In this document: positions 6,429 through 63,970 of the stretch, in pieces | How positions within the stretch are numbered: position 1 is the first letter of the stretch | Layout of the letters: each line of letters begins with the position of its first letter | Source of the DNA: an uncultured Gammaproteobacteria bacterium | Lineage (GTDB): Bacteria > Patescibacteriota > Microgenomatia > CAZETR01 > Amesbacteraceae | DNA: 64,000 bases | Assembly (NCBI GenBank): GCA_964633995.1 | Contig: CAZWKN010000004.1 | Coordinates: forward strand, 1,260 to 65,259 | Direction of reading: 5' to 3' | Notes under the pieces: generated by a model | The model's input: only the letters and a program-made list of their open reading frames with translations | The model's database searches: none | Told to the model about the DNA's origin: nothing | Translations under genes and position numbers: made by a program

Positions 6429-7020
6429 CTAAACCTAAAAGTTGGTCCCGACTTCCTCTTGTGGGGAGTCGAGATCAGCTTTGAGGCTGAATCTGGCGAA
6501 ATCCAGATGAGTAGCTCATTGAAAAGTGAAGAGAATTTAATAAGTAGTAGAGTCGTATTTTTTACTTCCGTAATGCAGACAATGGATGCCTAGGATGCTA
6601 GAGCCGAAGAAGGACGTACATAGCCACGAAAGTCGTCGGGGAGCTGCTAAGAAGCTTTGATCCGGCGGTATCCGAATGGGGAAACCCCTCCTATATGGAG
6701 AGTCCGCCGTAAGGCGAGATGGGGCACGTCCCGAACTGAAACATCTAAGTAGGGACAGGAAAAGAAATCACAGAGATTCCGTAAGTAAGCAGCGAGCGAA
6801 AGCGGAACAGCCTAAACCACGCCGCAAGGCGATGGGGTTGCGGGGTCCGCCGCAAGCAATTGATCGAGGATAGGAGAATCCCGTGGAAACGGGAACCAAA
6901 GCAGGTGATAGTCCTTTATCCGAAATCTAAGATCATGCTGGCGGATTCCCAAGTACCATGAGACACACGATCTTGTGGGAATCCGGGGTGACCACACTCC
7001 AAGGCTAAATACTTTAGCAT

Positions 7021-7061
<41 letters not shown>

Positions 7062-7751
7062 GGGTTAAAAACCTAGTGAAATAGAACCTGAAATTGTCTG
7101 CTGGCAAACAGTGAGAGCCCTGTCCCGCAAGGGGTGGGGTGATCGCGTGCCTATTGAAGAATTATCCGGCGAGTTTTCGATTGTTGCGAGTTTAAGCACG
7201 TCAAACGTGTGGAGGCGAAGCGAAAGCGAGTCTTAACAGGGCGCATAGCAGCAGTTGGAAGACCCGAAACCTGGTGAGCTAATCATGAGCAGGGTGAACC
7301 CCGATGAGAATCGGGGGGAGGCCCGAACTCGTTAGAGCTACAAATCTATGAGATGACTTGTGATTAGAGGTAATATGCCAATCGAACCAGGAGATAGCTG
7401 GCTCTCCCCGAAATATATATAGGTATAGCCCTAAAGCCAACTGATATGTGGTAGAGCACTGGATGCTTTCTGCAGCTTCACCGCTGTTGCGAGCAATCAA
7501 ACTCCGAATACGTATCAGAGTGCTTTGGGAGTCAGAACGACCCGGCTAAGCGGGCCGCTCTAAAGGGAAACAACCCAGACTGTCGTCTAAGGCCTCTAAA
7601 TAATGACTTAGTGTTGAACGCAGTTGAATTCCTCAGACAGCCAGGAGGTTGGCTCAGAAGCAGCCATCCTTTAAAGAAAGCGTAACAGCTCACTGGTCGA
7701 TTTGGGAGTTTGGCGCGGAAAATGAACCGAGGCTCAAGTCATTTGCCGAAG

Positions 7752-7848
7752 ACACAGATATTCGTGCTTCGCACAAAATTTATCATTTGTCATTTTACAT
7801 TTGATCATTCAATTGATGAAATGAAAAATGTTTAAATGGTTAATTTCG
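7752..7848 (+). other. AT-rich roughly 95-nt insertion in 23S helix 45 (IVS-like expansion)
   Basis: It replaces the short helix-45 tip (E. coli about 1170) between CCGAAG... and ...GGTAGGGGAGCGTT. At roughly 80% AT it contrasts with the flanking rRNA. Confidence 0.45.
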
Positions 7849-8596
7849 CGCGGAGCGCGGATGTGGTAGGGGAGCGTTGAAAGAGCTGTGAAGCATACGC
7901 CGTAAGGCGGTGTGGAGCGACTTCAAGTGAGAATGCCGGAATGAGTAGCGTTAACTCCGATGAGAATTCGGAGCGCCGAATACCCAAGGTTTCCTCCGCA
8001 ACATTTATTGTCGGAGGGTTAGTCGGCACCTAAGGTGAGGCCATAGTGGGCGTAACCGATGGACGAGCCGTTTAGATTCGGCTACATAAAATATATCGTT
8101 ATGAGCTAGGGACGGACTGAAAAGGAGTATCCAGGCGCATGCAGTGAATGTGGCGTCTAAGCAGTGAGATAGTGAACTTAGGAAAATCCGAGTTTGCGTT
8201 TTAAGTCGAGCTGTTATGGGAAGACTTGCGAGAAATTGTGAGACAACCTGGAGTGCTTCATTTTACGAGAAAATGTTCGTAGCCAGATGTATTTTATGCC
8301 GTACCGCAAACCGACACTGGTGGGTGGGTCGAGTAGACCAAGGCGTTCGGGAGAAGGTAGTTCAAGGAACTCGGCAAAAAAGCTGGACGTAATCTAGAGA
8401 GATGTCCTTCCCGCCTTTGGCGGGACGCAGCAAAAGCTTATTCCTCGACTGTTTAACTAAAACACAGGTCCATGCAAACTCGAAAGAGAAAGTATATGGG
8501 CTGAGGCCTGCCCAGTGCTCGTAAGTTAAGTGGATGGGTGTTAAAGCCCTGAAATGAAGCCCGAGTGAACGGCAGCAGTAACTATAACTGTTCTAT

Positions 8597-8638
<42 letters not shown>

Positions 8639-9148
8639 CGGCTTAACGAGGGAATAACTGTCTTGAACTATCACCCGGCGAAATTGAAATGGCTGTGAAG
8701 ATGCGGCCTAACTCTACTAGGACAAAAAGACCCTATGGAGCTTTACTGTACTCTGGCCCTGTTTCGGATTTTAAAATAGTTTAGTGTAGGAGGGAGCCTT
8801 CGGGCGACAATGAAACACCTCTCGTTTTGGAATCTCGAAACTAACCTATGCCGTCTGGAAACGACGGTGGAGACAAGGTCAGACGGGCAGTTTTACTGGG
8901 GAGGTATCCTGCTAAAGAGTAACGCAGGAGTGCCAAGGTGCTCTAAGCTCGGATGGAAATCGAGCTAGTCGTGTAACGGCATAAGAGCGCTTGACTGCGA
9001 GAGGGACACCTCGAGCAGGTGCGAAAGCAGGTCGTAGTGATCCTCGGATCCCTCGTGGGAGGGACCGGGCTTAACGGATAAAAGCTACCCTAGGGATAAC
9101 AGGCTGATCGCCGCCAAGAGTCCATATCGACGCGGCGGTTTGGCACCT

Positions 9149-9433
9149 TAACCAAATGGTATCGGGGTGTGTTGCCAGTAATGGCATTAGCAAGCTTTGT
9201 TATATGTATAATATTTTTTACTGACTCATATCGGAGAACTCCTTATAAAACGAACAATATAAGGAAAACCCCGAGGGAAGGCCGCCTATGGCGGCCCCCG
9301 TATCGACTTGTGGTTTCAAGACCACGGAGCCGTCTTTTTTAAGACGAGCTAAGACGTCAGCCCCTACTTTGGGTGAATTAACTTAAAGAGGGTGAAGGTA
9401 TAGTCAGCGCTTCGTGTAAACGAAGTCGACACG
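9149..9433 (+). ncRNA. candidate group I intron in 23S rRNA at the E. coli U2500-equivalent site
   Basis: The 285-nt insert exactly splits the conserved GGCACCU|CGAUGUCGG. The 5' exon ends in U and the insert ends in G. An internal guide GGGTG (9164-9168) can pair with exon CACCU with a U.G wobble at the splice site. No ORF is present. Confidence 0.5.
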
Positions 9434-9501
9434 CGATGTCGGCTCATCCTATCCTGGAGGGGCAGTACCTTCCAAGGGTCCGGCTGTTCGCCGGTTAAAA
9501 G

Positions 9502-9550
<49 letters not shown>

Positions 9551-9668
9551 AGTAGAATCGTGGAATTCTTGAGGGGGTCTGACCTCAGTACGAGAGGACC
9601 AGGTTGGAGGTATCACTGGTGTGCCGGTTGTGACGTCAGTTGCAGCGCCGGGTAGCTAAATACCTACG

Positions 9669-9701
<33 letters not shown>

Positions 9702-9902
9702 CTACCCAAGATTAGGAATTCATTCCGTCGCAAGATGGAAAAAGACCCGGGGAAGACTACCCCGTATAAGAGGCAGGCAGTGTAAGCACAGCAATGTGTT
9801 TAGCTTACCTGTACTAATCGGTCTAATGGAGTAAACTTACTAAACCCTATTACTTATTGTTCTCTTCACTTTTCAGTTAGTTACTTGCAAAGAGCGCAGA
9901 GT

Positions 9903-17166: not shown

Positions 17167-18444
17167 ATGACAAAAATACGGTCTAGTTATGTGTGTCAGC
17201 AGTGTGGGTATGTCCAGAGCCAGTGGAGTGGTAAGTGTCCCGAGTGTGATACGTGGAATTCGTTAGTAGAAACAGTTGCAGAAATCGCAAATCGCAAATC
17301 GCAAATCGCAAATAAGTCAAAAATATATCAACTATCTGATATAAAAATTGACGAGAAGAAGAGGATAAAGACGGGGATTGAAGAATTGGATAGTGTAATG
17401 GGGGGCGGATTGGTGGCTGGAATGGTGGTGCTGATTGCAGGAGAACCGGGAATTGGAAAAAGTACGTTGTTGACTCAAATAGGAAATGGGTCATTATATG
17501 TTTGCGGCGAAGAAAGTGCGTCTCAGGTGGCTTTGAGAGCGAAACGATTAAGCTTAAAAGGAGAAATGGATTTGTTGGAATCGACTGATGTGGATGAAAT
17601 CGTAAATAAGATGGATGGGGCTAAATTTGTGATAGTGGACTCGGTCCAGACATTAACGACCTCGGATTTGACGGGGACGGCTGGAAGTGTGGGTCAGGTG
17701 AGGGAGTGTGCAGCTAGATTGACTATGGCGGCAAAGAGACTAAATATCCCGCTGTTTATGGTCGGGCATGTAACTAAGGAAGGTAATATTGCAGGGCCCA
17801 TGGTGCTAATGCATGTAGTTGATACCGTATTGTGGTTTGAAGGTGAGCGGGGGCAGACATTGAGACTGATTAGGGCGGTAAAAAATAGATTTGGGCCCAC
17901 AGATGAAGTGGGGGTGTTTGAGATGAAAGAAGCTGGGCTTGTGGGGGTGAGTAATCCATCAGAACTAATGCTTGAAGAGCGGGTAAAAAACGTGCCGGGA
18001 AGTGTTGTGTCTGTAGTGTTGGAAGGCTCACGGCCAATGCTTATAGAAATTCAAGCTTTGGTTGTATCGAGTCAGTTGGCAATTCCCCGACGAGTGGGGA
18101 CTGGGTTGGATATGGCGAGATTGCAAATGTTGATTGCGGTGCTTATGAAAAGGGCCGGCTTGCAACTGGGGAGCGAGGATATTTTTGTGAATGTGACTGG
18201 GGGGATAAGGTTGGCAGATAGGGGAATAGATTTGGCTGTTTGTTTGGCAGTGGCCTCAAGTTTTTTAAACAAGAGTTTGGCTGGGGATATTGCCGCTGTG
18301 GGAGAAGTGGGATTGTTGGGAGAGGTGCGTAAGGTGACGGGATTAGAAAGGCGGGTTAAGGAGGCTAAGAAGTTGGGGTATAGAGTGGCTTCGGCAGAGT
18401 CGGGTAAGAGTGTGTCGGCGGCGATAAAAAAACTCCTAAACTAG
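17167..18444 (+). CDS. radA: DNA repair protein RadA/Sms
   Basis: N-terminal C4 zinc finger CQQCGY...CPEC, Walker A GEPGIGKSTLL, KNRFG motif and a C-terminal Lon-protease-like domain. Confidence 0.95.
   Translation: MTKIRSSYVCQQCGYVQSQWSGKCPECDTWNSLVETVAEIANRKSQIANKSKIYQLSDIKIDEKKRIKTGIEELDSVMGGGLVAGMVVLIAGEPGIGKSTLLTQIGNGSLYVCGEESASQVALRAKRLSLKGEMDLLESTDVDEIVNKMDGAKFVIVDSVQTLTTSDLTGTAGSVGQVRECAARLTMAAKRLNIPLFMVGHVTKEGNIAGPMVLMHVVDTVLWFEGERGQTLRLIRAVKNRFGPTDEVGVFEMKEAGLVGVSNPSELMLEERVKNVPGSVVSVVLEGSRPMLIEIQALVVSSQLAIPRRVGTGLDMARLQMLIAVLMKRAGLQLGSEDIFVNVTGGIRLADRGIDLAVCLAVASSFLNKSLAGDIAAVGEVGLLGEVRKVTGLERRVKEAKKLGYRVASAESGKSVSAAIKKLLN
17274..17312. repeat. degenerate heptanucleotide tandem array (aaatcgc x4-5) inside radA linker
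   Basis: gaaatcgc aaatcgc aaatcgc aaatcgc aaataag encodes EIANRKSQIANKS between the zinc finger and the ATPase. Confidence 0.9.
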
Positions 18445-18574: not shown

Positions 18575-19294
18575 ATGGCCCATAGAAAACTATGGGATTG
18601 ATAAAATTGACAGGGGTTGGTATACTCCCGGGTGAGGACCACAAGTAGCAAGAGTTATGCGTAAACTGCTCAGATTATGGTTTCGTAAGAGTGCCGTACG
18701 AAGACGGGGTGTTTTGGGGAGCAATTGGATGAGAGGGCAATTGGCCCAGGCTGTAAAGGTGAATCAAGGAGTTATTTTGATGGGGATGGGGAGGTAGTGA
18801 ATAATACTATGTTTACCGAGGCATCGAGACGATTATTGTTAGACAAGGCCAGGTTCGATCACGCGAGTGGTTGGGTGCTGTGGGGGGCGAGTATGTTGGC
18901 GTTGGTTACAGGAAATAGAGATTTGGGTATTTTATTCCTGGGGTTATCTTTTCCGGTATCGATTGATGCTGCTACTAGTTATTTCTCGGCATTTGTTCAC
19001 AAAAATAGGCATTAAAAAAGAGCATCGCCATCGCTGGATTGAGGACCACGAGTAGCAATGCCCTTTGAGAGATAATCGCCTGGACAGATACGGCGATTTT
19101 CACTTGATAACGGTGATAACATTTAAAGATCACCCTTGTCAAGAAAAAAAAGTCCTTATATTTCGCACCTTTTTAAATTAATTAGCCTCTTTGATGTGTA
19201 CTCAGCATGGAGGACCTGAAAAACGTAGTGGAATTTGATAGTGAGCAGGGCAGGCTGACTATTAGTCCACTTGTCCAGGTCTTCCATGGTGAGT

Positions 19295-20089
19295 ATGAAA
19301 AAATATTGCTTATTGCTTATTGCGTATTGCCTATTTTTTGGAATTGCCACTTCCCCTGCAAGGGCGGCTATTTCGTATGGAGCGGGTTACTACACCAATT
19401 TATGTGATAGTGGGACGTCGGCTAAGTTTTATAACTGTGATCCTGGGTGTAATCCTTCTTTGGGATCGTGTATCGGGAAGAATGAGGGAGTGGTGAAGTG
19501 GGTATGTAGTGGAAAATGGGATCAGTGTTTGGAATCCGAAAGCAACTGGAGTAATGCTGAAAGTTTTAATGGGATGAGTTGTGGTAAGACGGCGCAGATT
19601 TCACTGTTTGATAAAAAATGTCGCCGTGATGATGGCAGTTGGGATCAAACCTGCGTCTTGAAGGGATATATGGTGTGGTACTCGGGGGATTGTAAATCTG
19701 GGATGGTCGTTGATACGCCAAAACCGACGACAACGGTGGTACCGACTGTAAAAATAACACCGACCAAATCCGTATCTCTGGTGCCTTCTGCAACTCTAAC
19801 TCCGACTCCGACTATCATCGTAAAGATTTCCGAGGCGCCCAGCGTGTGTGGCGTGGCCTGTACTCCTTTGGGTGGATGTAAAGCTGGATTGGTGTGCACA
19901 AAAGGGGTTTGTAGAAACCCTGCATGTAATCAGGAGAGTAGCTGCTTTTGCGGAAAGATATTAGGATCTGCTGTTGCGACAAAGCCGCCCGAAACAGGTT
20001 TTAATGTTTGGCAGTGGAGTATCGTGTGGATGGGAATATTTGGTTTGGGATGGTATTTGAAAAAAATGGCTGTTAAAGTTTGGAAGTGA
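19295..20089 (+). CDS. secreted Cys-rich protein with Thr/Pro linker and C-terminal sortase-type sorting signal (KPPETG + hydrophobic segment + KK tail)
   Basis: Signal peptide MKKYCLLLIAYCLFFGIATSPARA with a GGTGA RBS. C-terminus ...ATKPPETGFNVWQWSIVWMGIFGLGWYLKKMAVKVWK. The sortase gene follows with an overlapping start. Confidence 0.6.
   Translation: MKKYCLLLIAYCLFFGIATSPARAAISYGAGYYTNLCDSGTSAKFYNCDPGCNPSLGSCIGKNEGVVKWVCSGKWDQCLESESNWSNAESFNGMSCGKTAQISLFDKKCRRDDGSWDQTCVLKGYMVWYSGDCKSGMVVDTPKPTTTVVPTVKITPTKSVSLVPSATLTPTPTIIVKISEAPSVCGVACTPLGGCKAGLVCTKGVCRNPACNQESSCFCGKILGSAVATKPPETGFNVWQWSIVWMGIFGLGWYLKKMAVKVWK
19304..19338. repeat. heptamer tandem array (tattgct x2, tattgcg, tattgcc, tattttt) encoding the signal-peptide h-region
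   Basis: Same tattgc unit as the intergenic array at 46610-46637. Confidence 0.85.
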
Positions 20090-20733
20090 AGCGGGGATTA
20101 ATTTATAAGAGTGGAGTTTATCGGGAGCCTGTCGGTTTGGCTGGGATAGTCGAGGCCCTAAAAGCTGTTGCCAGGTGGCTGGTGAGGGTGGGTAGGTTTT
20201 TGATGGTATTGGCTGTTGTTGGAGCGGTTTATATATATTTACCGTTGGGAATAGCTTGGATAAATTACTCCAACCATAAAGTGACGAAAGAGTTGGTGGT
20301 GGAAGATAATAATTATGCCGTTTTTGTGCCGAAAATTGGTGCTTTGGCGGCGGTTATTCCAAATGTGGACGCTAATAGTAAAGAGGCTTATGGGCTGGCT
20401 TTAAGGGCGGGGGTGGCGGAAGCTGCTGGAATGGCTCATCCAGGTGAGATGGGGACTACTTTGTTATTTGCTCATTCGGTGGGAGATAGGATAGATTTTG
20501 CAAGGTATAACGCAGTTTTTTACTTGTTAGACAAGCTGGGTTTAGGGGATACGGTGGAGATTGTTTATAAGGGTAAATTATTGCGATATGAGGTTGTCCG
20601 GAGAGAAATATTGGAACCAGAAAATAATGCCTATTTTAAGCCTCAAAAATTGTCTGAACAACTGGTTTTACAGACGTGTTGGCCACCAGGGACGACGTGG
20701 AAGAGATTGGTAGTTGTAGGGAGGAGAATTTAG
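20080..20733 (+). CDS. sortase (cysteine transpeptidase), membrane-anchored
   Basis: N-terminal TM. Catalytic His region LLFAHS, TLxTC-type motif LVLQTCWP, and a conserved C-terminal Arg in RLVVVGRR. Confidence 0.75.
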   Translation: MEVKRGLIYKSGVYREPVGLAGIVEALKAVARWLVRVGRFLMVLAVVGAVYIYLPLGIAWINYSNHKVTKELVVEDNNYAVFVPKIGALAAVIPNVDANSKEAYGLALRAGVAEAAGMAHPGEMGTTLLFAHSVGDRIDFARYNAVFYLLDKLGLGDTVEIVYKGKLLRYEVVRREILEPENNAYFKPQKLSEQLVLQTCWPPGTTWKRLVVVGRRI

Positions 20734-20809: not shown

Positions 20810-22153
20810 ATGTCTGACAACAATGATGGTGTAATAAATGTTCCGCCCGGACCGGTTTCTGATGGGCAGGATGTAGCAATGGCTTCTCCGGGTGTAAGGT
20901 CTATGATGAGACCTGGTGTGGTCCGAGTTATAGGTAGGGTAGTTCCACGCCCAGCCCCCAGTTTCAATGGCCAGAATCAACAGGCGCGTCCGATAGTTAG
21001 GGCGCCTATTTATCAACAGGAAGAAAGAGTGATTCCCGATTCTGGTTGGCCCACTGAATACGTAGAGGGATTTTTGGATATTACCCCTGATGGGCATGGT
21101 TATTTAAGGCCCAAGATGGTACCCTCTTCTAAGGATGTTTATATTTCTTCTTCTCAGGTAAGAAGGTTTAATTTACGCCCCGGAGATTTGGTGGGTGGCC
21201 AGGCAAGGGAGCCCAAAGAAAATGAAAGATATTGGGGGCTTTTGAAAGTCGAAAAAGTAAATTCTGGGACACCAGAACAGGCGGCAACCAGGCCAGAATT
21301 TGACAACATGACGGCTGTTTTTCCGGAGGAACAGTTGGTTTTGGAGACCGATCCCGAAATAATGTCGACGAGGATCATCGATTTGGTGGCCCCGATCGGA
21401 AAGGGTCAAAGAGGACTTATTGTGGCCCAACCTAAGGCTGGGAAGACATGGTTACTTAGGGACATTGCTCAGTCGCTGACCAAAAATTATCCGGATATGC
21501 ATTTGATGGCGGTGCTTATAGGGGAAAGGCCTGAGGAAGTAACGGAGATTATCAGATCACTAAAGGGAGAAGTGGCTGCGTCGCATTTCGATGAGCCTCC
21601 CTTGGAACAAGTTAGAATTGCCGAATTGGCTTTGGAGCGGGCCAAAAGATTGGTAGAGATGGGTAAGGATGTGTTTATCCTGTTGGACTCGATTACACGA
21701 CTGGCCAGGGCATATAACATGATTACTTCTGGGTCGGGTAGGATGATGTCTGGAGGATTTTCGGCAGAAGCTATTTATCCCGCCAAAAAAGCTTTTGGGG
21801 CAGCAAGAAAATTTGAAGAGGGTGGAAGCTTGACTATTTTGGGTACATGTTTGGTGGATACTGGTTCCCGACAGGACGACTTGGTTTATGAGGAATTTAA
21901 AGGAACCGGAAATATGGAGTTGCATTTGGACAGAAGACTGGCTGATAGGCGAGTGTTTCCGGCATATGATATCTTGAAAAGTGGAACCAGAGGTGAAGAA
22001 AAATTGTTGGGCAAGAGATACGAGAAGGTAATTCAACTTCGGAGAATGTTGGACTTACTAAACGAGGATGAACGGACAGAATTGTTGATTGCGAAAATGA
22101 AAAAGACTAAGAATAACGACGACTTTTTGGAAAGCTTGACGAAGGCTGGTTAA
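20810..22153 (+). CDS. rho: transcription termination factor Rho (with N-terminal low-complexity extension)
   Basis: CSD-like RNA-binding domain (RFNLRPGDLVGG) and an ATPase domain with Walker A GKGQRGLIVAQPKAGKT and Q/R loops. Confidence 0.95.
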   Translation: MSDNNDGVINVPPGPVSDGQDVAMASPGVRSMMRPGVVRVIGRVVPRPAPSFNGQNQQARPIVRAPIYQQEERVIPDSGWPTEYVEGFLDITPDGHGYLRPKMVPSSKDVYISSSQVRRFNLRPGDLVGGQAREPKENERYWGLLKVEKVNSGTPEQAATRPEFDNMTAVFPEEQLVLETDPEIMSTRIIDLVAPIGKGQRGLIVAQPKAGKTWLLRDIAQSLTKNYPDMHLMAVLIGERPEEVTEIIRSLKGEVAASHFDEPPLEQVRIAELALERAKRLVEMGKDVFILLDSITRLARAYNMITSGSGRMMSGGFSAEAIYPAKKAFGAARKFEEGGSLTILGTCLVDTGSRQDDLVYEEFKGTGNMELHLDRRLADRRVFPAYDILKSGTRGEEKLLGKRYEKVIQLRRMLDLLNEDERTELLIAKMKKTKNNDDFLESLTKAG

Positions 22154-38095: not shown

Positions 38096-38191
38096 TGATT
38101 ATATTAAATAGTCATTTGGTTCACTGGTCAATGGGGAGTTTGGAATGGGTCTGACCTATTGCGGAAGAGGTCTGACCTGTGTCATGATGTA

Positions 38192-38872
38192 ATTATGCCG
38201 GCCAAGTTTAGGGTGAAGTCTAATAATGAGCACACGCTATACCATATATATAATAGGGGCGTGGATGGGAGGGATGTATTTGTTGATGAGAACGATTACA
38301 CCGAATTTTTGGACACATTAAAAAAATATGTGACTAAGGTGGAAATAAAAACCGTTCCGGGTTTTAAGACATTGAAACCGTCAATGGCAGAATACATGCA
38401 GAAGATGAATTTGTCGGATCAGCTGGACATGGTAGCATATTGTATGATGTCCAATCATATTCATCTGGTGATTTATCAGAAACAATTGGACGCTATTGCC
38501 AAGCTGATGAGGAGAGTGATGACTGGGTATGGGATGTATTTTAATAAGAAATACAAGCGAAGAGGACCTTTGTGGGAGGGGGTATATAGGGCTGTGGAAA
38601 TATCGTCAGGGGAACAGCTTGTTTGTCTTACTAAATATATTCACTTAAACCCGGTAACTCGGACGGTAAGAAGGTTTGGCCCGGTCGAAACGATAACCGG
38701 TTCGTCGCCTGAGAGTTATACGTATTCAAGTTTTGGTACATATATAGGTCTAAATAATGATAAATGGGTAAATATTAAATTCGTAAATATGAATTCCGAT
38801 GAATATAAAAGATATGTGTCTGAGCACGACAATGCCTTGGAAGAGAAGCTCAAAGAGGTGAAGATCGATTAA
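38192..38872 (+). CDS. IS200-like HUH (Y1) transposase-family protein, paralog A
   Basis: YHIYNRG N-motif, HUH motif SNHIHLV, catalytic-Tyr region GVYRAVEI, and IHLNP. Paralog of the gene at 55993-56685. Confidence 0.65.
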   Translation: MMPAKFRVKSNNEHTLYHIYNRGVDGRDVFVDENDYTEFLDTLKKYVTKVEIKTVPGFKTLKPSMAEYMQKMNLSDQLDMVAYCMMSNHIHLVIYQKQLDAIAKLMRRVMTGYGMYFNKKYKRRGPLWEGVYRAVEISSGEQLVCLTKYIHLNPVTRTVRRFGPVETITGSSPESYTYSSFGTYIGLNNDKWVNIKFVNMNSDEYKRYVSEHDNALEEKLKEVKID

Positions 38873-50014: not shown

Positions 50015-50355
50015 TATTTGTTAAGATTTAAGTGAGAATTTAAGCCTTGGGTTGTGGTATAAAGCAGGGCGGTTCCAATTCCGCTGTATATAATTGCAGC
50101 CGAGAGATGGTCTATGCGATCAAGTAAGCTCAACACGAAAATGCTGGTTCTAAAAAATTCTGCAAATGCATAGGCGCCAACTTCTGTTTTTGGAAAACAT
50201 GCCCATATTTTTGTGTTGTTGTAGGGCAAATAAACTTGAATCGAACGGCGTGAGGGCAATTTTGGTTCGCCAAAAGATGAGTTCCAAATCCATGGATAGA
50301 TTCTAGCACTATAGGGCAAGGAGGACGCCGAGGGCGATAAGGATGGAGCTACCAA
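50014..50355 (-). CDS. small hypothetical protein (113 aa)
   Basis: Co-oriented between the Cys-rich membrane protein and tyrS. Weak support. Confidence 0.3.
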   Translation of the reverse strand: MVAPSLSPSASSLPYSARIYPWIWNSSFGEPKLPSRRSIQVYLPYNNTKIWACFPKTEVGAYAFAEFFRTSIFVLSLLDRIDHLSAAIIYSGIGTALLYTTTQGLNSHLNLNK

Positions 50356-51607
50356 TGGTAACGACCCATGTGTTTGTGGTGGATCCGGATTGGGCTAGTT
50401 GGGCGGGGGTGGGGGAAAGTTTGGGTGTCGGCCAGGCTGGGGGACAGGCACATGACATTTGGTCAGAGCAGTTTGGATTACGACAACGGCCGGCTGAGCA
50501 GATAAACTGAGCCTCACAGTTGGCATTTGAGCCACATGTACCATTGCATTTGTTTGGGCTACCAGGTGTATTGTCTGGGATGCCGGGTGTGGGGGTAATG
50601 GTAAGTGTGGGTATCGGTGTAGTGGTAGGTAGGGGTGTCGTGGTGGGGGAAGTAGTAATGCCTGGTGTAGCGGTGGCCATGGGAGTGCTGGTGGGTGTGG
50701 AGGTGGGATTGTTACAACTTCCGGCGTTGGTTTGAGTCCAGTAGTAGTCAAGGCTGCCGGTACAATTGGCAATCGGATTGCCATTCGAGTCGAGTATGGC
50801 CGCCCCGTAATGAATTTCTACTGTAGTGTCGGTTGGTCTTATGCCCGGCCAAGTAGCGGTAATTGAAAATTGGAGGTTGTTGGAAGCAGGTTGGCTAGCA
50901 TAAGTTTGTTCGGTGCGAAGATCGGGTGGGTTAACGATATAGTATGCCGTTTGGAGAGTGCTATTTTCAGGAGCCGAGACTACGGTTCCTGTTACGGCGA
51001 CTTGATTTTGGTTGGGGTCACAATAGAGTTTATCGGCTTCGTTAAATATTACCTGACAACTGGCCAGGTAACTACCCGTATTGAGACAATCGCTTTGGCC
51101 ATCTACTTTCCAACTAAAAACTCCAGATGGGGGAACGGTGACTGTTCCGAGATTGGCGGTTGCTCCAGGGGCTAGGTCGGGCGCATCAAATGTATTGACC
51201 AGGGCGTTGTCGATATAGACATCTACTCTTTGGTTGGGTTCGTTTCTGTTGGAGCCGTTAGTGGCTGTTACAAGCCCGGTTTGGGAGACACTAAAGACAT
51301 ATTTGGAACAATCCCAAGCATACGATGTAGCTCTTTGACGACGCTGGACCAAAACGATGGCTGTTATGACTCCTGACCCCAAAACAAAAAGAAGGGCAAT
51401 GGCAATAATTAATTTTTTATTGAACTTAGGCTTGGAGCTTCCTGTGGAGGTGATTACTTGTTCTGGGCCGGGTAAATCAGTAGGGGGTCTGAAGGGGGTA
51501 TAATTTGTGGGAGTTGGAGGTGGTGGAGGAGGATCCGATGTCATGTACCCAGAATAACCTTTTTTTTGATACAATTGCAATATGTTGTATTCGAAGTTGT
51601 TCCCCAA
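50309..51607 (-). CDS. membrane-anchored extracytoplasmic protein with Pro/Thr linker, Cys-rich C-module and C-terminal TM
   Basis: N-terminal cytoplasmic Pro-rich segment plus TM. Module CNGTCGSNANCEAQFICSAGRCRNPNCSDQMSCAC is shared with the 19295 protein. The start may instead be the MTSDPPP ATG (51544) to avoid a 26-nt overlap with divergent proS. Confidence 0.55.
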   Translation of the reverse strand: MGNNFEYNILQLYQKKGYSGYMTSDPPPPPPTPTNYTPFRPPTDLPGPEQVITSTGSSKPKFNKKLIIAIALLFVLGSGVITAIVLVQRRQRATSYAWDCSKYVFSVSQTGLVTATNGSNRNEPNQRVDVYIDNALVNTFDAPDLAPGATANLGTVTVPPSGVFSWKVDGQSDCLNTGSYLASCQVIFNEADKLYCDPNQNQVAVTGTVVSAPENSTLQTAYYIVNPPDLRTEQTYASQPASNNLQFSITATWPGIRPTDTTVEIHYGAAILDSNGNPIANCTGSLDYYWTQTNAGSCNNPTSTPTSTPMATATPGITTSPTTTPLPTTTPIPTLTITPTPGIPDNTPGSPNKCNGTCGSNANCEAQFICSAGRCRNPNCSDQMSCACPPAWPTPKLSPTPAQLAQSGSTTNTWVVTIGSSILIALGVLLAL

Positions 51608-55974: not shown

Positions 55975-56725
55975 CCTTTAAGGACAGTTCTTTCAAAGAT
56001 CGAGGGTGAGAGATGATATTTGGGAGAGGGAGGGTTCGTCGATTTGCGAGTTTTCGACAAAACTAGAGTAGGAATTGAATCCTGATTTGGCAAAATAAGA
56101 TAAAATTGCTTGTGGTTTGAGCCAATCTTGTTTGATAAAGCCGAGATAGTTTCGATAAGATGATGGTTGGGGACACTCTTGTAAGGACTGTCCTTTTTGG
56201 AAAGGATTGAGGTGAATATAGCGAGATAGGTGGAGCAGTTGTTGTTCTGAATCTACAAGGACCGCCTTGTAAGCATCCTGAAAAAGTGGTCCTACTCTGT
56301 GGTTGTTTCTATGGTTAAAATACTGGACGTAGCGGGTGCAAAGAGAGCGCATAAACATTTCTATAGTTCTGGGAACGGTTTGTTTGACTAAAAGATGGAA
56401 ATGATTGGGCATTAGGCAATAGGCTAGTAAATCGAGTTGATTGGAAAAATTGTTGAGTCGAATTAGTTTTTTGGCATCTGCCTTTTGATAGGGAGTAGAT
56501 GTGGGGTTGGTTAATACCTGAAGGAGTTTGTCTAAGTCTTTGGGGGAAAGATATTCTTTGAGATATGAGAGGAAAACGGACTCATCCTGTTTGTCTGAAA
56601 AAATTGCTCGCTTTTCGACACCGCGGTTGTAGATGTGGTAGTAGCCGTTTTCGTGATACTCTTTGATCTTGTTCTTGGCGGGCACAAATTTAGGATACTC
56701 TTGAAAGGACTGTCCTTTCAAGAGT
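55975..56725 (-). mobile_element. putative IS200/IS605-like element (HUH transposase gene bounded by palindromic hairpins)
   Basis: GAAAGGACTGTCCTTTC perfect palindrome at 56703-56719, just upstream of the gene. A related palindrome lies at 56183-56196 and a degenerate copy (AAGGACAGTTCTTT) at 55981-55994, just past the stop. Overall size about 750 bp. Confidence 0.45.
55993..56685 (-). CDS. IS200-like HUH (Y1) transposase-family protein, paralog B
   Basis: YYHIYNRGV, HUH as PNHFHLL, YKAV, and IHLNP. Start proposed at GTG 56683-56685, equivalent to MPAK of paralog A. The annotated 368-aa ORF has a 140-aa low-complexity N-terminus overlapping the neighbouring gene. Confidence 0.6.
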   Translation of the reverse strand: MPAKNKIKEYHENGYYHIYNRGVEKRAIFSDKQDESVFLSYLKEYLSPKDLDKLLQVLTNPTSTPYQKADAKKLIRLNNFSNQLDLLAYCLMPNHFHLLVKQTVPRTIEMFMRSLCTRYVQYFNHRNNHRVGPLFQDAYKAVLVDSEQQLLHLSRYIHLNPFQKGQSLQECPQPSSYRNYLGFIKQDWLKPQAILSYFAKSGFNSYSSFVENSQIDEPSLSQISSLTLDL

Positions 56726-56742
56726 TGGAATTGTGATAGAAT

Positions 56743-57792
56743 TTGGGGATGGCGAGTGATTTGGGGCAGAAGGCAAAGAAAACGTTGGAAGCGTTTGTGC
56801 CGGAGATAGATAAGCGAATTGCTGAGTATTTTGACGAAGAAATAAAAAAAGATTTCGGGTTTAATGAGAAACAGAAAAAGTTGGATAGGGAGATTTTGGA
56901 ACACGCAAAAGAATACATTCTGCGTCCGACGAAGAGAATCAGAAGTTCGTTTGTGCGTTATGGAGCAAGGTTGGGTGGAGAAGAATGTGATTGGGGTGCT
57001 GCTGTGGGGGTGGAGTTGGTACATGCAGGGCTTTTGATGCATGACGATTTTATGGATAACGATAGTTTTAGGCGGGGAGGGTTGACAACCCATGAACATT
57101 TTAAAAAAGTAATGAATGATTCACACCTGGGGGATGCTATGGCGGTTACGGTGGGAGATGCAATGTTGTTTATGGGCTTAGAGCTTATTTCTAATAGCGA
57201 CAACAGACCGGCAATGAAACAGATGTTGAGAGGGTTGGCAAATACTGGTTATGGCCAGGCTTACGATGTTGGTTTGGAAGCACTTAAGGAATGGACAGAA
57301 GACGATGTGATCGTTTTGCACAAGGCAAAGACGGCGATTTATACGTATGAGAATCCGTTGTTTATTGGGGCGCATTTGGCCGGTTTATCAAAAGAGGTTT
57401 TTGAAATTTTGCATGAATATTCTATGGATGGTGGGGTGGCATTTCAGTTGCAAGATGATATTTTGGGAGTGTATGGGAGTCCAGAGAAGACGGGAAAGAG
57501 TGCAGATTCGGATCTAAAACAGGGAAAATGTACCCTGATGGTGCTTAAGGCGTGGGATTGTCCAGAAGTGCATAAAGTTTGGGGTGATCAAAATGCAACG
57601 AGAGAGGATCTGGATGCGGCTAAAAAAGCCATATTGGACTGCGGGGCGTATGAATATAATAAAAAATTGGCCAGAGAGTATGCGGCAAAAGCGGCTAGGA
57701 CGGCAGAGAAATTGCGTAAATTTGAGTTAAATTCAGAAGCGATTGATTTCATCCAGGGTATTGCTGAGTATATGGTGGAGAGAGAAGTATAA
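56743..57792 (+). CDS. trans-polyprenyl diphosphate synthase (FPP/GGPP synthase family)
   Basis: First Asp-rich motif LLMHDDFMDNDSFRRG and second motif LQDDILG. Confidence 0.85.
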   Translation: MGMASDLGQKAKKTLEAFVPEIDKRIAEYFDEEIKKDFGFNEKQKKLDREILEHAKEYILRPTKRIRSSFVRYGARLGGEECDWGAAVGVELVHAGLLMHDDFMDNDSFRRGGLTTHEHFKKVMNDSHLGDAMAVTVGDAMLFMGLELISNSDNRPAMKQMLRGLANTGYGQAYDVGLEALKEWTEDDVIVLHKAKTAIYTYENPLFIGAHLAGLSKEVFEILHEYSMDGGVAFQLQDDILGVYGSPEKTGKSADSDLKQGKCTLMVLKAWDCPEVHKVWGDQNATREDLDAAKKAILDCGAYEYNKKLAREYAAKAARTAEKLRKFELNSEAIDFIQGIAEYMVEREV

Positions 57793-59555: not shown

Positions 59556-60938
59556 ATGGTTTATACTAAGAATGACGTGAATGTTTCTAAATTATCTTTG
59601 TGGTTTCAGATAGTTTTGGTGGTTTTTTTTATCATCTCATTGTTGATAATTGTTCGGTTGTTTCCCAAAAAACAATCATTTCATACCCAAGCTGCGGCTT
59701 GTTCGGATTTTTCAACCCAAGTTATTTGTTCTGCTCAGCCAAATTGTAGGTGGCAATTAGGCCAACTTGTTAATTGTAGTGGGGTTCCTCCTTGTCAAAG
59801 TTCTTCCTGTACTATTCAAGACAATTATTCCCAATGTAATTCGAGTTGGGTTGATTTACGGTGTACTAGTCGTTCAGGTTGCTCTTTTGCAGAGGTTAGA
59901 CGACAATGTTCGGGTTTGACGCAAACCCAGTGTCAGGCCACAGTTTTCTGCTCACCCCTGACGACGGCGTGCGCTTTTTCGGGTGGTGTATGCCCCACTG
60001 GTTGTAATTATGGTGCCGCATCTGCTGCAAAGTGTTGGGGCAGATCAGGTTGTGAACGTAATACTAGCCAAACTTCGTGTTTAACCTATAGCTGTCAGTG
60101 GACACCGAGTAAGCCTGCGACCTGTACAGGATCTCGATATACCGGATGCGGAGGGGGGAGTTGGCTTGAAAGTACCACTTGTTCTGGTACTTATATTTCT
60201 TCCAGATCGTGTGCTGGTAGTTACACATCTGCGGGATCTTGTGTGTCAGTTCCGCCTACAGCCATACCCACTCCCACACCCGTTCCGCCTACTCCTGTCC
60301 CTGTCGCAAATTGCAACACATCGATTCCGGCAAATGATTACATAGCATATTATCTTTATCATCTTACCGGACCTGAATCTTTTGCTGCTGGAGCATTGCG
60401 GTGGACGGGAAATCTGGGTAAAAACTACGGCAAAGAGTGTTATTGGGATGTGGTGAATCAATCTTATCAGAGAGGCGTAGATCCGGGATTTACTCTAGCG
60501 GTGTGGTTGCATGAGAGCGGTGCTAGTAACTATGTTCGTTTTGCACCTAATCCAGTACTCGATTTTGGAGTTCTGGGTTCGAATAATAACAATTTAAGTA
60601 TACAACTGGGTGCTTTCTTGGGATTGCCGGCACATTATTTAAGCGGGTGTAGTGCGGAAATATCTTCTGGAAAACTGCCGATGGAGGTATTTGTTTCTAA
60701 GTTCACTTCTGGTTATTGTAATCCTGATACAAATGCCGATGTTCGCTTAAGGGTGGATGGTTATATTCAAAAACTTCGAAACATATATCCCATGGCTACT
60801 AGTGATCCATTCCCAAATTATCCTACAGCTATCTCAAGTGAGGTTCGCCGGGTTGTTATTCCATCTCCCACGCTAGTAAAAACTACACCATTGCCGAAAT
60901 TTCCAATGATGAACACTGATTTGGAAACAGGTTTTTAA
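59556..60938 (+). CDS. membrane-anchored Cys-rich secreted protein with possible lysozyme-like/SLT C-terminal domain
   Basis: N-terminal TM. About 40 Cys in the first 230 aa. PT linker, then AVWLHESGASNY...APNP...DFGVLG, reminiscent of the transglycosylase ES...GLMQ core. Confidence 0.45.
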   Translation: MVYTKNDVNVSKLSLWFQIVLVVFFIISLLIIVRLFPKKQSFHTQAAACSDFSTQVICSAQPNCRWQLGQLVNCSGVPPCQSSSCTIQDNYSQCNSSWVDLRCTSRSGCSFAEVRRQCSGLTQTQCQATVFCSPLTTACAFSGGVCPTGCNYGAASAAKCWGRSGCERNTSQTSCLTYSCQWTPSKPATCTGSRYTGCGGGSWLESTTCSGTYISSRSCAGSYTSAGSCVSVPPTAIPTPTPVPPTPVPVANCNTSIPANDYIAYYLYHLTGPESFAAGALRWTGNLGKNYGKECYWDVVNQSYQRGVDPGFTLAVWLHESGASNYVRFAPNPVLDFGVLGSNNNNLSIQLGAFLGLPAHYLSGCSAEISSGKLPMEVFVSKFTSGYCNPDTNADVRLRVDGYIQKLRNIYPMATSDPFPNYPTAISSEVRRVVIPSPTLVKTTPLPKFPMMNTDLETGF

Positions 60939-63900
60939 GGCGATCCAGTAGCTGGTCCAAACCGTACGGCAGAACCTTCGTTGTATAGACGTTTCACTTG
61001 AGATGAAGATTGGGGATAGTTGTAAATTTGGACATTGTCTATTTGGCCGGTAAAGAAATCGCTAGCTCCGTCGGCTGATCCGATATAAAAAGATCTCGTA
61101 GTTAGAGACGAGGGGGATCCAGCTGGTGCTCCAGCGGTGTTGCCATTTACATAGAGAGTATTGGTGCCGGCATTGTTGACCCAAACGACATGTTGCCAGC
61201 TATTTAGACTAATTCTATTGTCTAGTCCGTAGTTACATGAAGCACCGTTGACGCACAAGGAAAGAGAAGCGTTTGTCTGGCGAATATAAAAAGTATAACC
61301 AGCTGTGCCACTATCGCGGGATACTATTGTGGGGAATCCTCCACCCCAACTGGTGGGATAAATCCATGCGGAAATTGTAAAATTGGTGGTTAGATTAAAA
61401 TTGGCATCTGTAGCCACTGACACCTGGTCATTTGTGCCGTCGAAGCCGAGTGATGAATTGTATTTTCCAGTAGTTCCGTCGTTCCACATTTCAGTGGTAG
61501 TGCCACTACTACATGATCCGACTGTATCGTTGTCTCCAGTTGTGTCGCCGGGAGTAATGGTGCCGTTCATGCCGGCGGCTTGGCCTTGGGAGTTGAGGGC
61601 GGCATTATAAGCGGTGGCGCCACTACATTCGTCAAATTTGTACCAGGCAATAGGCGCGCCTTGGTTATACAAATATTCGACTTGTGCTTTGGTGAGAGCA
61701 GAGCGAAAAATGCGGACATCGTCTATTTTCCCAGTAAATTCGTTGGCGGTACCGCATCCACCTGAAGCTTGAGCGTCGGTACCTATGCACAATCCTAGGG
61801 TATTGGAGAGTGAGCCAATTTCGGTGGGACTTGCACAATTTGTACAGCTTTCGTAGGTGTTGTATTCTACTCCGTTAAGATAGATGGCTGAACCAGCGAG
61901 GGTGGAATTATCAAATACGCCCACGATGTGATACCACTGGTTGAGAGTGTCGGTGCTGTGGTCTGGAGTACATACCTCGTATTGGTCTGAACCACCAGCA
62001 GTACCGTCGGACAGGTAGAAACATGTATTGCCACCATCGGTGTTATACCACCAGGATATATCGTAACCTGTTTCTGATGCTGTCCAAATTGAATCTTTCT
62101 TGGAAACAATTTGGGCGTCTTGGGTGTTAGCGGTGGGGTAAATCCATACAGAGATAGAAAATGAATCACCATCGGCGATATTTATGTTGTCTCCAAAAGA
62201 GACGTAGTCACTAGTGCCGTCGAACGTAACGGCGGATCCGATTTCGCCTTGGGTAAACGCAGTGTTTCCACTAAACGCACCGTCTATGCCTCCGCTCGAA
62301 GTGTCGCAAACATCGTTGGCGCCACCCGAGCAAGTGTTGGGTGTATTTTCGTCCATTTTCCATTGAGCAACCGCTGCTGGGAGTGAGAAGCCTTTGTCCG
62401 TATGGTCGTCAACTCCTCCCAACGTTATAGATGAATTGGCGTTCATGTCGAGTAGGACCTCAGAGGGGGAGAGGGCAGATCTGTATATTTTTACTTCGTC
62501 GATGTCGCCTGCGAATGAATTGGTGGCATCACCGTCATCGTCTCCTATGTACAACGCAGTTGCGTTTTCCAGGGAACCTGTGGCCGAGAGGCTGGTGTCC
62601 TGGCCTGCTAGTTTGCCGTCTACATACAGGTTTAATTTGCCTGAGGCGATATCCCTGATACAGACAACATGGTGCCAGGTGGCGTCGTAATAATCTGTCG
62701 TCGTCGTTGCCGTGTCTTCGGGATATGAGGTGGTGTCATCGTCCAGATCACAGGTAAGTAGTCCCGTGGAGTTGGCAAAGTACATTCTGTATCCTGCTAC
62801 GTTGCCGGCGGCTTTCTTTTGGATGATTACTTCGTCGTTGGTCACGGGATTAGTTGCCGAGTCGGACTTAACCCACATGCTTAAGGAGAAATCCGTACTG
62901 GCTGCAAAATCAAAATCGGCATCATCGGCACGAGACGCCCAGATGGAGCCAGTCCCATTCCAGGCACCACTATATTTACCGCTTGTAGTCCAGGAGGCAG
63001 AGGAAAGAGTGAGATCGTTGTTATTGTCAGTCAAATCATTAACATTAGTTCCTTGCATGTCATTAAAACTCCAACGAGATACATAGCTTCCTACAGGACT
63101 TCCTCCTGCAGGGTGACCGCCGTTCATATCCTCAATGATTTGCTTGGAAGTGCGGGCGTAGTTGTAGACACGTAGGTCATCGAGGTACCCGTATAGTTCC
63201 TGCGTAGTGTTGCAATTGGCGCCAGCGCCAAAAATTCCCAAACAAGCGACGTTGGTGTTGGCTAGAGAGCCGACGTTGGCCAGCGTGCCTGAAGTGGTGG
63301 TAGTTTGAGCAATACCATTGATATAGATGAGGTTGTTGGCAGAATTATTGCGATCGATTACTCCGGCTACGTGATACCAATTATTTAGGGCCATCGAGGA
63401 AGCCGAGGCGTAGATAAAATAAATATCTGTGCCGTCACTAATTTTCATACAGATTTGATTGGGTACGGTATCAGAAATTTGGCAGGTGGTACTGGAGCCT
63501 AAGAAAAAGGTCATGCCTGCACTAGTGCCATTTTGTTTGGAAATAATAGTGGAAGGATTGTTGAATGAAGCCAGACCTGCCAGGTTTATCCAGAAATCTA
63601 CTGAAATACTATTGGTGTCACTAAAATCAAGTGCATTGTTATCGCCCAGATTTATTGCTGAATCGCTCGTATTGCCATTAAAGTATAAAGAGGATCCGAT
63701 TTTCCCCGGGAGCCATTTGGGGCTGTTTACAAAAGATCCTGCAGAGCCGTTACCTGTGGCGTCGGTGACGCTGGTGCCCGTGTTTTCATCCAGTTTCCAC
63801 CAGCCTACTGGTCCGGGGGCGAAGGAGTAGAGAGCGGAGACTTCGGCAGGTGAGAGGGCGCGGTTGTAAATGCGTATTTCGTCCATTTTCCCGGTGTTGT

Positions 63901-63970
63901 TTAGATATGCTCCATTAGCTCGACCAACTTCAAATGCAGTAGCGTTGACGGCTGTGGTTGTGGTTACCAC
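60935..63970 (-). CDS. giant surface protein with five tandem LamG/concanavalin-A-like lectin domains
   Basis: The LamG_3 C-terminal signature recurs five times (MDEIRIYNRALSPAEVSALY, LDDLRVYNYARTSKQI, IDEVKIYRSALSPSEV, IDDVRIFRSALTKAQV, IDNVQIYNYPQSSSQV). An in-frame stop lies immediately upstream of GTG 63970. Confidence 0.7.
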   Translation of the reverse strand: MVTTTTAVNATAFEVGRANGAYLNNTGKMDEIRIYNRALSPAEVSALYSFAPGPVGWWKLDENTGTSVTDATGNGSAGSFVNSPKWLPGKIGSSLYFNGNTSDSAINLGDNNALDFSDTNSISVDFWINLAGLASFNNPSTIISKQNGTSAGMTFFLGSSTTCQISDTVPNQICMKISDGTDIYFIYASASSMALNNWYHVAGVIDRNNSANNLIYINGIAQTTTTSGTLANVGSLANTNVACLGIFGAGANCNTTQELYGYLDDLRVYNYARTSKQIIEDMNGGHPAGGSPVGSYVSRWSFNDMQGTNVNDLTDNNNDLTLSSASWTTSGKYSGAWNGTGSIWASRADDADFDFAASTDFSLSMWVKSDSATNPVTNDEVIIQKKAAGNVAGYRMYFANSTGLLTCDLDDDTTSYPEDTATTTTDYYDATWHHVVCIRDIASGKLNLYVDGKLAGQDTSLSATGSLENATALYIGDDDGDATNSFAGDIDEVKIYRSALSPSEVLLDMNANSSITLGGVDDHTDKGFSLPAAVAQWKMDENTPNTCSGGANDVCDTSSGGIDGAFSGNTAFTQGEIGSAVTFDGTSDYVSFGDNINIADGDSFSISVWIYPTANTQDAQIVSKKDSIWTASETGYDISWWYNTDGGNTCFYLSDGTAGGSDQYEVCTPDHSTDTLNQWYHIVGVFDNSTLAGSAIYLNGVEYNTYESCTNCASPTEIGSLSNTLGLCIGTDAQASGGCGTANEFTGKIDDVRIFRSALTKAQVEYLYNQGAPIAWYKFDECSGATAYNAALNSQGQAAGMNGTITPGDTTGDNDTVGSCSSGTTTEMWNDGTTGKYNSSLGFDGTNDQVSVATDANFNLTTNFTISAWIYPTSWGGGFPTIVSRDSGTAGYTFYIRQTNASLSLCVNGASCNYGLDNRISLNSWQHVVWVNNAGTNTLYVNGNTAGAPAGSPSSLTTRSFYIGSADGASDFFTGQIDNVQIYNYPQSSSQVKRLYNEGSAVRFGPATGSP

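Follow-up and report, generated by a model that had tools for sequence, protein, structure and literature searches.

We analyzed a 64-kb stretch of DNA (contig CAZWKN010000004.1, positions 1,260 to 65,259 of the forward strand; here called the window and numbered from its first letter) whose closest protein matches, at identities of only ~45 to 55%, come from Microgenomates of the Candidate Phyla Radiation (CPR), Candidatus Amesbacteria among them. Between radA (17167-18444) and rho (20810-22153) lie two plus-strand genes, one for a secreted, cysteine-rich protein with a C-terminal sorting signal and one for a membrane-anchored sortase. We consider it likely that they form a two-gene operon for covalent surface display, in which the sortase would attach the adjacent protein, its substrate, by the standard sortase pathway.

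Results

The two genes overlap by 4 nucleotides (nt): the stop codon of the substrate gene (TGA, 20087-20089) and the start codon of the sortase gene (GTG, 20086) share the sequence GTGA. The sortase could alternatively start at a TTG at 20080. Genes called independently on this DNA in another assembly show the identical 4-nt overlap. The order S1-RadA-substrate-sortase-Rho was kept in three contigs found by protein identity and, with a second substrate gene before the sortase in some cases, recurs at all Amesbacteria-clade loci examined. A scan of species-representative genomes yielded 80 sortase loci. At every Amesbacteria-clade locus among the 80, the end of a sorting-signal gene falls somewhere from 22 nt past the sortase start to 97 nt short of it, and at five loci two sorting-signal genes stand in tandem upstream of the sortase. 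All the Amesbacteria-clade loci examined have one or two sorting-signal genes directly upstream of the sortase, each with a residue other than leucine at position 1 of the motif. The overlap had been pointed out in an earlier reading of the window from its letters alone (the sequence-only reading), and adjacency or overlap recurs across the clade. We take the two genes to be a genuine sortase-substrate pair, predicted to be translationally coupled, with conserved synteny.

The substrate gene (19295-20089; alternative ATG at 19286) encodes 264 amino acids and has 61 homologs with a common architecture. The signal peptide (19295-19366; MKKYCLLLIAYCLFFGIATSPARA, then A, with an A-x-A cleavage site in which ARA precedes that A) was judged by inspection, from an initial MKK followed by a hydrophobic stretch, and not by a predictor; N-terminal hydrophobic segments are kept in the ortholog alignment. 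It is followed by a head domain of ~110 amino acids with 10 invariant cysteines (19367-19699; GxGYYTNLC...WYSGDC) and by a Pro/Thr-rich stalk (19700-19840), which has a predicted local distance difference test (pLDDT) score of <50 and differs in length among orthologs. Next comes an 8-Cys mini-module (19841-19954), C-x3-C-x5-C-x5-C-x4-C-R-N-P-x-C-x5-C-x-C. The C terminus is ...ATK-PPETG-FNVWQWSIVWMGIFGLGWYL-KKMAVKVWK, consisting of the sorting pentapeptide (19985-19999), a hydrophobic segment (20000-20059), and a basic tail (20060-20086). The stalk was read from the sequence. The 61 homologs share the signal peptide, the ~110-residue 10-Cys head, a variable Pro/Thr stalk, and the tripartite C terminus, and in most of them the 8-Cys mini-module stands ahead of that C terminus. 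The sequence-only reading had described the tripartite layout correctly, and the orthologs keep both their signal peptides and related C termini.

Position 1 of the pentapeptide varied widely among 59 orthologs (T in 30, S in 17, N in 5, L in 4, A in 2, and P in 1, with P found only in this window). Proline at position 2 was invariant, and 54 of the 59 motifs ended in T-G, whereas four ended in T-A and one in A-G. The distance from the motif to the C terminus is 26 to 32 residues, and the linker flanking the motif is not conserved. The family consensus is [T/S]-P-[E/D]-T-G, with PPETG a singleton. Second substrates, which are unrelated to the first, bear TPKTG, NPEAG, or TPTTG, and the sortase-adjacent substrates of more distant Microgenomates (Woesebacteria-like and others) bear LPKTG, LPETG, LPQTG, or LPE[S/A]G. 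Compared with signals of the LPXTG type, the substrate of the window has the signal peptide, a pentapeptide with Pro, Thr, and Gly at positions 2, 4, and 5 located ~30 residues from the end, and the hydrophobic segment with a basic tail; position 1 is proline instead of leucine.

These comparisons suggest that the Amesbacteria-clade sortase recognizes P-x-T-G without a constraint on position 1. On the plain reading, PPETG would be one outcome of drift at that position and not a special motif. The claim that the motif is non-canonical stands insofar as the canonical leucine is absent, but PPETG does not represent a specific new motif, position 1 being free to vary. No sorting signal was found in any other open reading frame (ORF) of the window. 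Most orthologs end exactly in a conserved ...AKK[V/I/L]W, and a terminal tryptophan is unusual for the tail of a sorting signal.

The sortase gene (20086-20733) encodes 215 amino acids when read from the GTG, and is supported by Pfam, by alignments, and by the independent gene call. The protein matched Pfam family PF04203 with a score of 62.4 bits (cutoff, 26.6 bits). In alignments with solved class C sortases, its AHS, its QTC (LQTC, a TxxTC-like motif), and its R fall on the catalytic His, Cys, and Arg, and the corresponding residues, His130 (20473-20475), Cys198 (20677-20679), and Arg207 (20704-20706), are invariant in 120 of 120 sortase homologs. The HS...TC...R triad of the sequence-only reading is thus conserved on alignment. 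A hydrophobic N-terminal anchor at approximately residues 33 to 57 was identified by inspection and not by a transmembrane predictor.

We propose that the substrate is exported by Sec via its N-terminal signal peptide and that the C-terminal hydrophobic segment and basic tail would then retain it in the membrane. The cotranslated sortase, using Cys198 together with His130 and Arg207, would cleave PPETG between Thr and Gly to form a thioester at Cys198 and would pass the substrate to an amine of a peptidoglycan precursor. The product would be a disulfide-stabilized beta-sandwich head displayed on a Pro/Thr stalk, and this head would probably bind a ligand or mediate adhesion. The window encodes MurB, two Mur ligases, MraY, UppS, and a TagA/WecG-type transferase. 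The precursor of peptidoglycan that a sortase needs is therefore within the synthetic capacity of the organism, and peptidoglycan is a plausible acceptor.

Several observations count against this pathway. The sortase reached the cutoff of none of the NCBIfam class models (class C, 42.6 versus 160 bits; class D, 31.8 versus 165; class F, 21 versus 166; class E, 17 versus 160), and it narrowly missed the generic sortase model TIGR01076 (39.2 versus 39.35). The LPXTG-anchor models PF00746 and TIGR01167 gave no match to the substrate at an E value of ≤1. With 64 kb of the genome covered, a sortase dedicated to this one substrate, as proposed in the sequence-only reading, is no more than a possibility. 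The acceptor could also differ from peptidoglycan, the envelope of such bacteria being poorly known. The class A and class B models gave no match to the sortase at an E value of ≤1, so that the comparison with classes A to F ended with no class cutoff reached. By its sequence, we place the enzyme in the sortase superfamily outside the curated classes A to F, in a Microgenomates-wide lineage.

The 8-Cys mini-module of the substrate recurs in the window, as the sequence-only reading had noticed. In a BLASTP comparison, it aligned with residues 350 to 388 of a membrane protein encoded on the minus strand (ORF 50309-51607, with the gene placed at 50309-51544), over 39 ungapped residues and with 8 of 8 cysteines matched (E = 2e-7). 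This protein has an N-terminal membrane anchor, and its module (50444-50560) is followed by LAQSG (50384-50398) and a hydrophobic end without a basic tail. Homologs of the 50309-51607 protein indicate that many surface proteins of Microgenomates carry the module, in each case immediately ahead of a C-terminal anchor. The anchor is of two kinds. The first is canonical, in which LPKTG precedes a hydrophobic segment and a tail of the KKFKLI type. In the second (P0184-P0217), LPx[S/A]G is followed by ~5 residues and a terminal hydrophobic segment (...LLLAL) without a basic tail, and this ending is joined with an N-terminal membrane anchor. The 50309-51607 protein has the second kind of ending, in the form LAQSG, and may itself be a sortase substrate. 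The center of the module, C-x5-C-x5/6-C-x4-C-R-[N/D]-P, resembles the DPY module of Dumpy (PDB 1oig; E = 0.0046) and knottins (E of ~0.1). Unlike these, the module has 8 cysteines and a fixed position ahead of an anchor; the likeness is weak, covers a short stretch, and could have arisen by convergence.

A third Cys-rich protein, encoded on the plus strand at 59556-60938, had been counted as a nearby member of the same anchored set. It has an N-terminal hydrophobic segment and contains WLHESG in its C-terminal half, and it matches no Pfam or NCBIfam family. We rejected it as a relative of the substrate, to which it has no similarity; it lies 39 kb away and lacks a C-terminal sorting signal. 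That all three Cys-rich proteins form the regulon of one sortase would agree with the shared module, with the LPx[S/A]G and hydrophobic segment that end the family of the 50309-51607 protein, and with the occurrence of LPE[S/A]G plus a basic tail next to sortases in other Microgenomates. We nonetheless find such a regulon rather unlikely, because the 50309-51607 protein, which is anchored in the membrane at its N terminus, has LAQSG, without the proline, and lacks a basic tail, and the 59556-60938 protein has neither the similarity nor the signal. What survives of the proposed set is the substrate, with its complete signal, and the module that the 50309-51607 protein shares with it.

The main rival to wall anchoring is pilus assembly, in which a class C-like sortase would polymerize the adjacent protein or proteins into a covalent fiber, either instead of or before wall attachment. 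Class C sortases are the best matches of the enzyme among both hidden Markov models (HMMs) and PDB entries (8t28 and 5k9a), and their His, Cys, and Arg align with its own. As with class C enzymes, the sortase gene clusters with genes for substrates, and in five related genomes a tandem pair of substrate genes precedes it, in the manner of a pilus operon. However, the class C score of 42.6 is far below the cutoff of 160, and, unlike in class C sortases, no lid motif, DP[W/F/Y], was seen on inspection between the membrane anchor and the first strand. Nor is the substrate pilin-like: its head is Cys-rich, it has no Pfam CnaB, SpaA, or pilin match and no YPKN-type pilin motif, and it has the kind of long Pro/Thr stalk with which anchored proteins typically span the wall. 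We judge pilus assembly to be distinctly unlikely.

Least probable, to the point that we give it hardly any weight, is that the C-terminal segment is a plain membrane anchor with an incidental xPxTG and that the sortase acts on other proteins; the unconserved position 1, the few orthologs with T-A or A-G in place of T-G, and the anchor HMMs without a match would suit it, but Pro2 is invariant and Thr4 and Gly5 are nearly so at a set distance from the C terminus in ~59 orthologs with an unconserved linker, the gene adjoins or overlaps that of the sortase strictly across the clade, and unrelated second substrates in the same position share the motif.

If the pair is an operon for surface display, its product presents the head domain. 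Neither this domain nor the 8-Cys mini-module belongs to a Pfam or NCBIfam family. A Foldseek search of the PDB with the full-length substrate model gave nothing better than E = 0.09, and a PDB profile search with the head domain gave chance-level matches only. Modeled alone, the head domain was all-beta, with a pLDDT of 89.9 and a predicted template modeling (pTM) score of 0.83. A profile search of 1.8 billion representatives returned 137 clusters with the domain, nearly always directly after a signal peptide. Longer relatives bear PKD, DUF11, Big_7, SdrD_B, and similar surface-protein domains. A complete sorting signal was present in 43 of 130 relatives, with leucine in 26 (mostly LPKTG) and QPxTG in 10. 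Because of the position, accompanying domains, and sorting signals of these relatives, we regard the domain as a recurrent head of sortase-anchored CPR surface proteins, and this context suggests a binding or adhesive role. The non-Leu variant QP[E/D/S/N/K]TG, followed by TPT, a hydrophobic segment, and a basic tail, occurs in 10 to 11 head-domain clusters (P0231-P0258 and P0326). In many relatives with LPKTG, the cytoplasmic tail is long and conserved (...YLWQxREF).

The 850 nt that separate radA from the substrate gene contain DNA with 75 to 88% identity across genomes whose flanking proteins share only ~45 to 55%. On the minus strand of this gap, we identified an undescribed candidate small RNA gene of ~100 nt (19012-19112), divergent from the substrate gene, with covarying hairpins. 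It is preceded by a conserved, sigma-70-like promoter (19113-19152, minus strand), in which an invariant TTGACA is followed after ~18 nt by TGnTATCAC. The first hairpin has an invariant CUGUCC loop. The second is long and conserved in sequence, contains a variable inserted helix in three genomes, and is followed by a U-run. RNAalifold gave -29.3 kcal/mol for the minus strand versus -4.4 for the plus strand. In the alignment, 96.6% of cells were paired, versus ≤65% with slid partners, and covariation exceeded that of 500 of 500 shuffles; the single sequence folded with a z-score of -4.9.

A covariance model of the small RNA matched 21 Amesbacteria-clade loci (20 distinct, since L002 and L018 are the same contig) and also four distant loci outside the seed. 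Three of the four are the distant loci at which the scan had placed a substrate gene with LPKTG or MPKAG immediately ahead of the sortase; at the fourth, L075, an LPKTG substrate gene ends 77 nt before the sortase ORF. At each of these loci, the small RNA immediately precedes the first gene of the operon and is oriented away from it. Conservation at the most distant loci, L075 and L081, is limited to hairpin 2. The small RNA had no match in Rfam at gathering thresholds or at an E value of ≤10. RNase P RNA, signal recognition particle RNA, transfer-messenger RNA, 6S RNA, and a known riboswitch were rejected for the upstream DNA on length, on sequence, and for want of an Rfam match. A DNA palindrome or operator is disfavored because the G-U pairs work on the minus strand only.

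A second conserved element is a leader hairpin on the plus strand (19198-19296) with an invariant AGGGCAG loop and 11 pairs, 7 of which have compensatory changes. The folding energy in the window is -55.1 kcal/mol (z = -8.6), and the region of the start codon is covered by the 3′ arm of the hairpin. The loops of the small RNA (CUGUCC) and of the leader (GGGCAG) are complementary over 6 to 7 nt, and in L014 the small RNA loop is CUGCCC, which changes a G-U pair into G-C. This complementarity suggests that the small RNA may regulate the operon through a loop-loop contact with the leader. There is a small chance, in our estimate, that the operon and both RNA elements form one conserved Microgenomates module, with loop-loop control of display and with a sortase of a new class that ignores position 1.

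An 18-nt word, GAGGACCAC[A/G]AGTAGCAA, occurs twice in the window on the plus strand (18634-18651 and 19041-19058; 0.03 occurrences expected by chance). The copy at 18634 is preceded by a promoter-like TTGATA-17-TATACT. We rejected this copy as a conserved element: it is specific to the window, and relatives have a single copy.

The window has a G+C content of ~44% and a strong, constant GC skew of 0.3 to 0.45, with most genes on the plus strand; the skew falls in the rRNA region and past 60 kb. It matches the strand disparity reported for UBA1400 Microgenomates (PMC7143001). Genes for 23S and 5S rRNA, tRNAs, and housekeeping genes are present. The 23S rRNA match (6560-9838, plus strand) covers 3279 nt compared with a model of 2925 positions, which suggests ~350 nt of inserted sequence in the gene. 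A large protein encoded at 60935-63970 on the minus strand, probably running past the end of the window, has five LamG/ConA-like lectin repeats and no C-terminal sorting signal. IS200-like Y1 transposase domains occur in two ORFs (38159-38872, plus strand; 55993-57099, minus strand).

Discussion

The closest precedent for the motif is SrtB of Clostridium difficile, which cuts SPKTG, PPKTG, SPSTG, and SPQTG at the T-G bond and leaves LPETG uncut (PMC4155245). Like the (S/P)PxTG substrates of that enzyme (PMC4155245, PMC5118464), the substrate described here has a non-Leu position 1, PPxTG being among the known forms, followed by a hydrophobic segment and a basic tail. Cleavage between T and G is demonstrated for SrtB and would be expected for the sortase of the window. 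The two systems differ in other respects. SrtB is a class B enzyme, whereas the sortase of the window had no class B match; position 1 varies much more widely here (T, S, N, L, A, or P); and the sortase of the window is gene-coupled to its substrate. The substrates of the two enzymes are unrelated. Compared with SrtA of Staphylococcus aureus and its LPXTG substrates, the pair shares the tripartite signal, a membrane-anchored cysteine transpeptidase, and a presumed lipid II acceptor. Unlike in that system, Leu1 would not be required, the enzyme has no class A match, and the signal is missed by PF00746 and TIGR01167.

Meheust et al. (2019, PMC6744442) report a CPR sortase family, fam000526, as near-ubiquitous in Microgenomates. 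The sortase of the window probably belongs to it, and hundreds of sortase homologs were found in the present analysis. The passages searched in that paper report the distribution of the family; its substrates, motif, gene coupling, and upstream RNA elements were not found in them. In the text returned by full-text searches and keyword look-ups for sortases together with CPR or Patescibacteria, CPR substrates, their motif, and gene coupling are not described.

The proposed mechanism is a textbook one, and the non-Leu motif has a precedent; the sortase chemistry is not new, because (S/P)PxTG has already been demonstrated experimentally for SrtB of C. difficile. The lineage of the enzyme is unclassified, and the advance is incremental.

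CPR bacteria presumably live attached to other cells, and to our knowledge their surface proteins are almost entirely uncharacterized. The locus provides a concrete, conserved, and testable case in which an unclassified sortase is paired with a defined substrate, and the head domain of this substrate occurs in >130 protein clusters. Predictors based on LPXTG miss substrates in the Amesbacteria clade, which would be recovered by searching for x-P-x-T-G with a hydrophobic segment and a basic tail behind it. We nominate the head domain as a candidate host-contact module.

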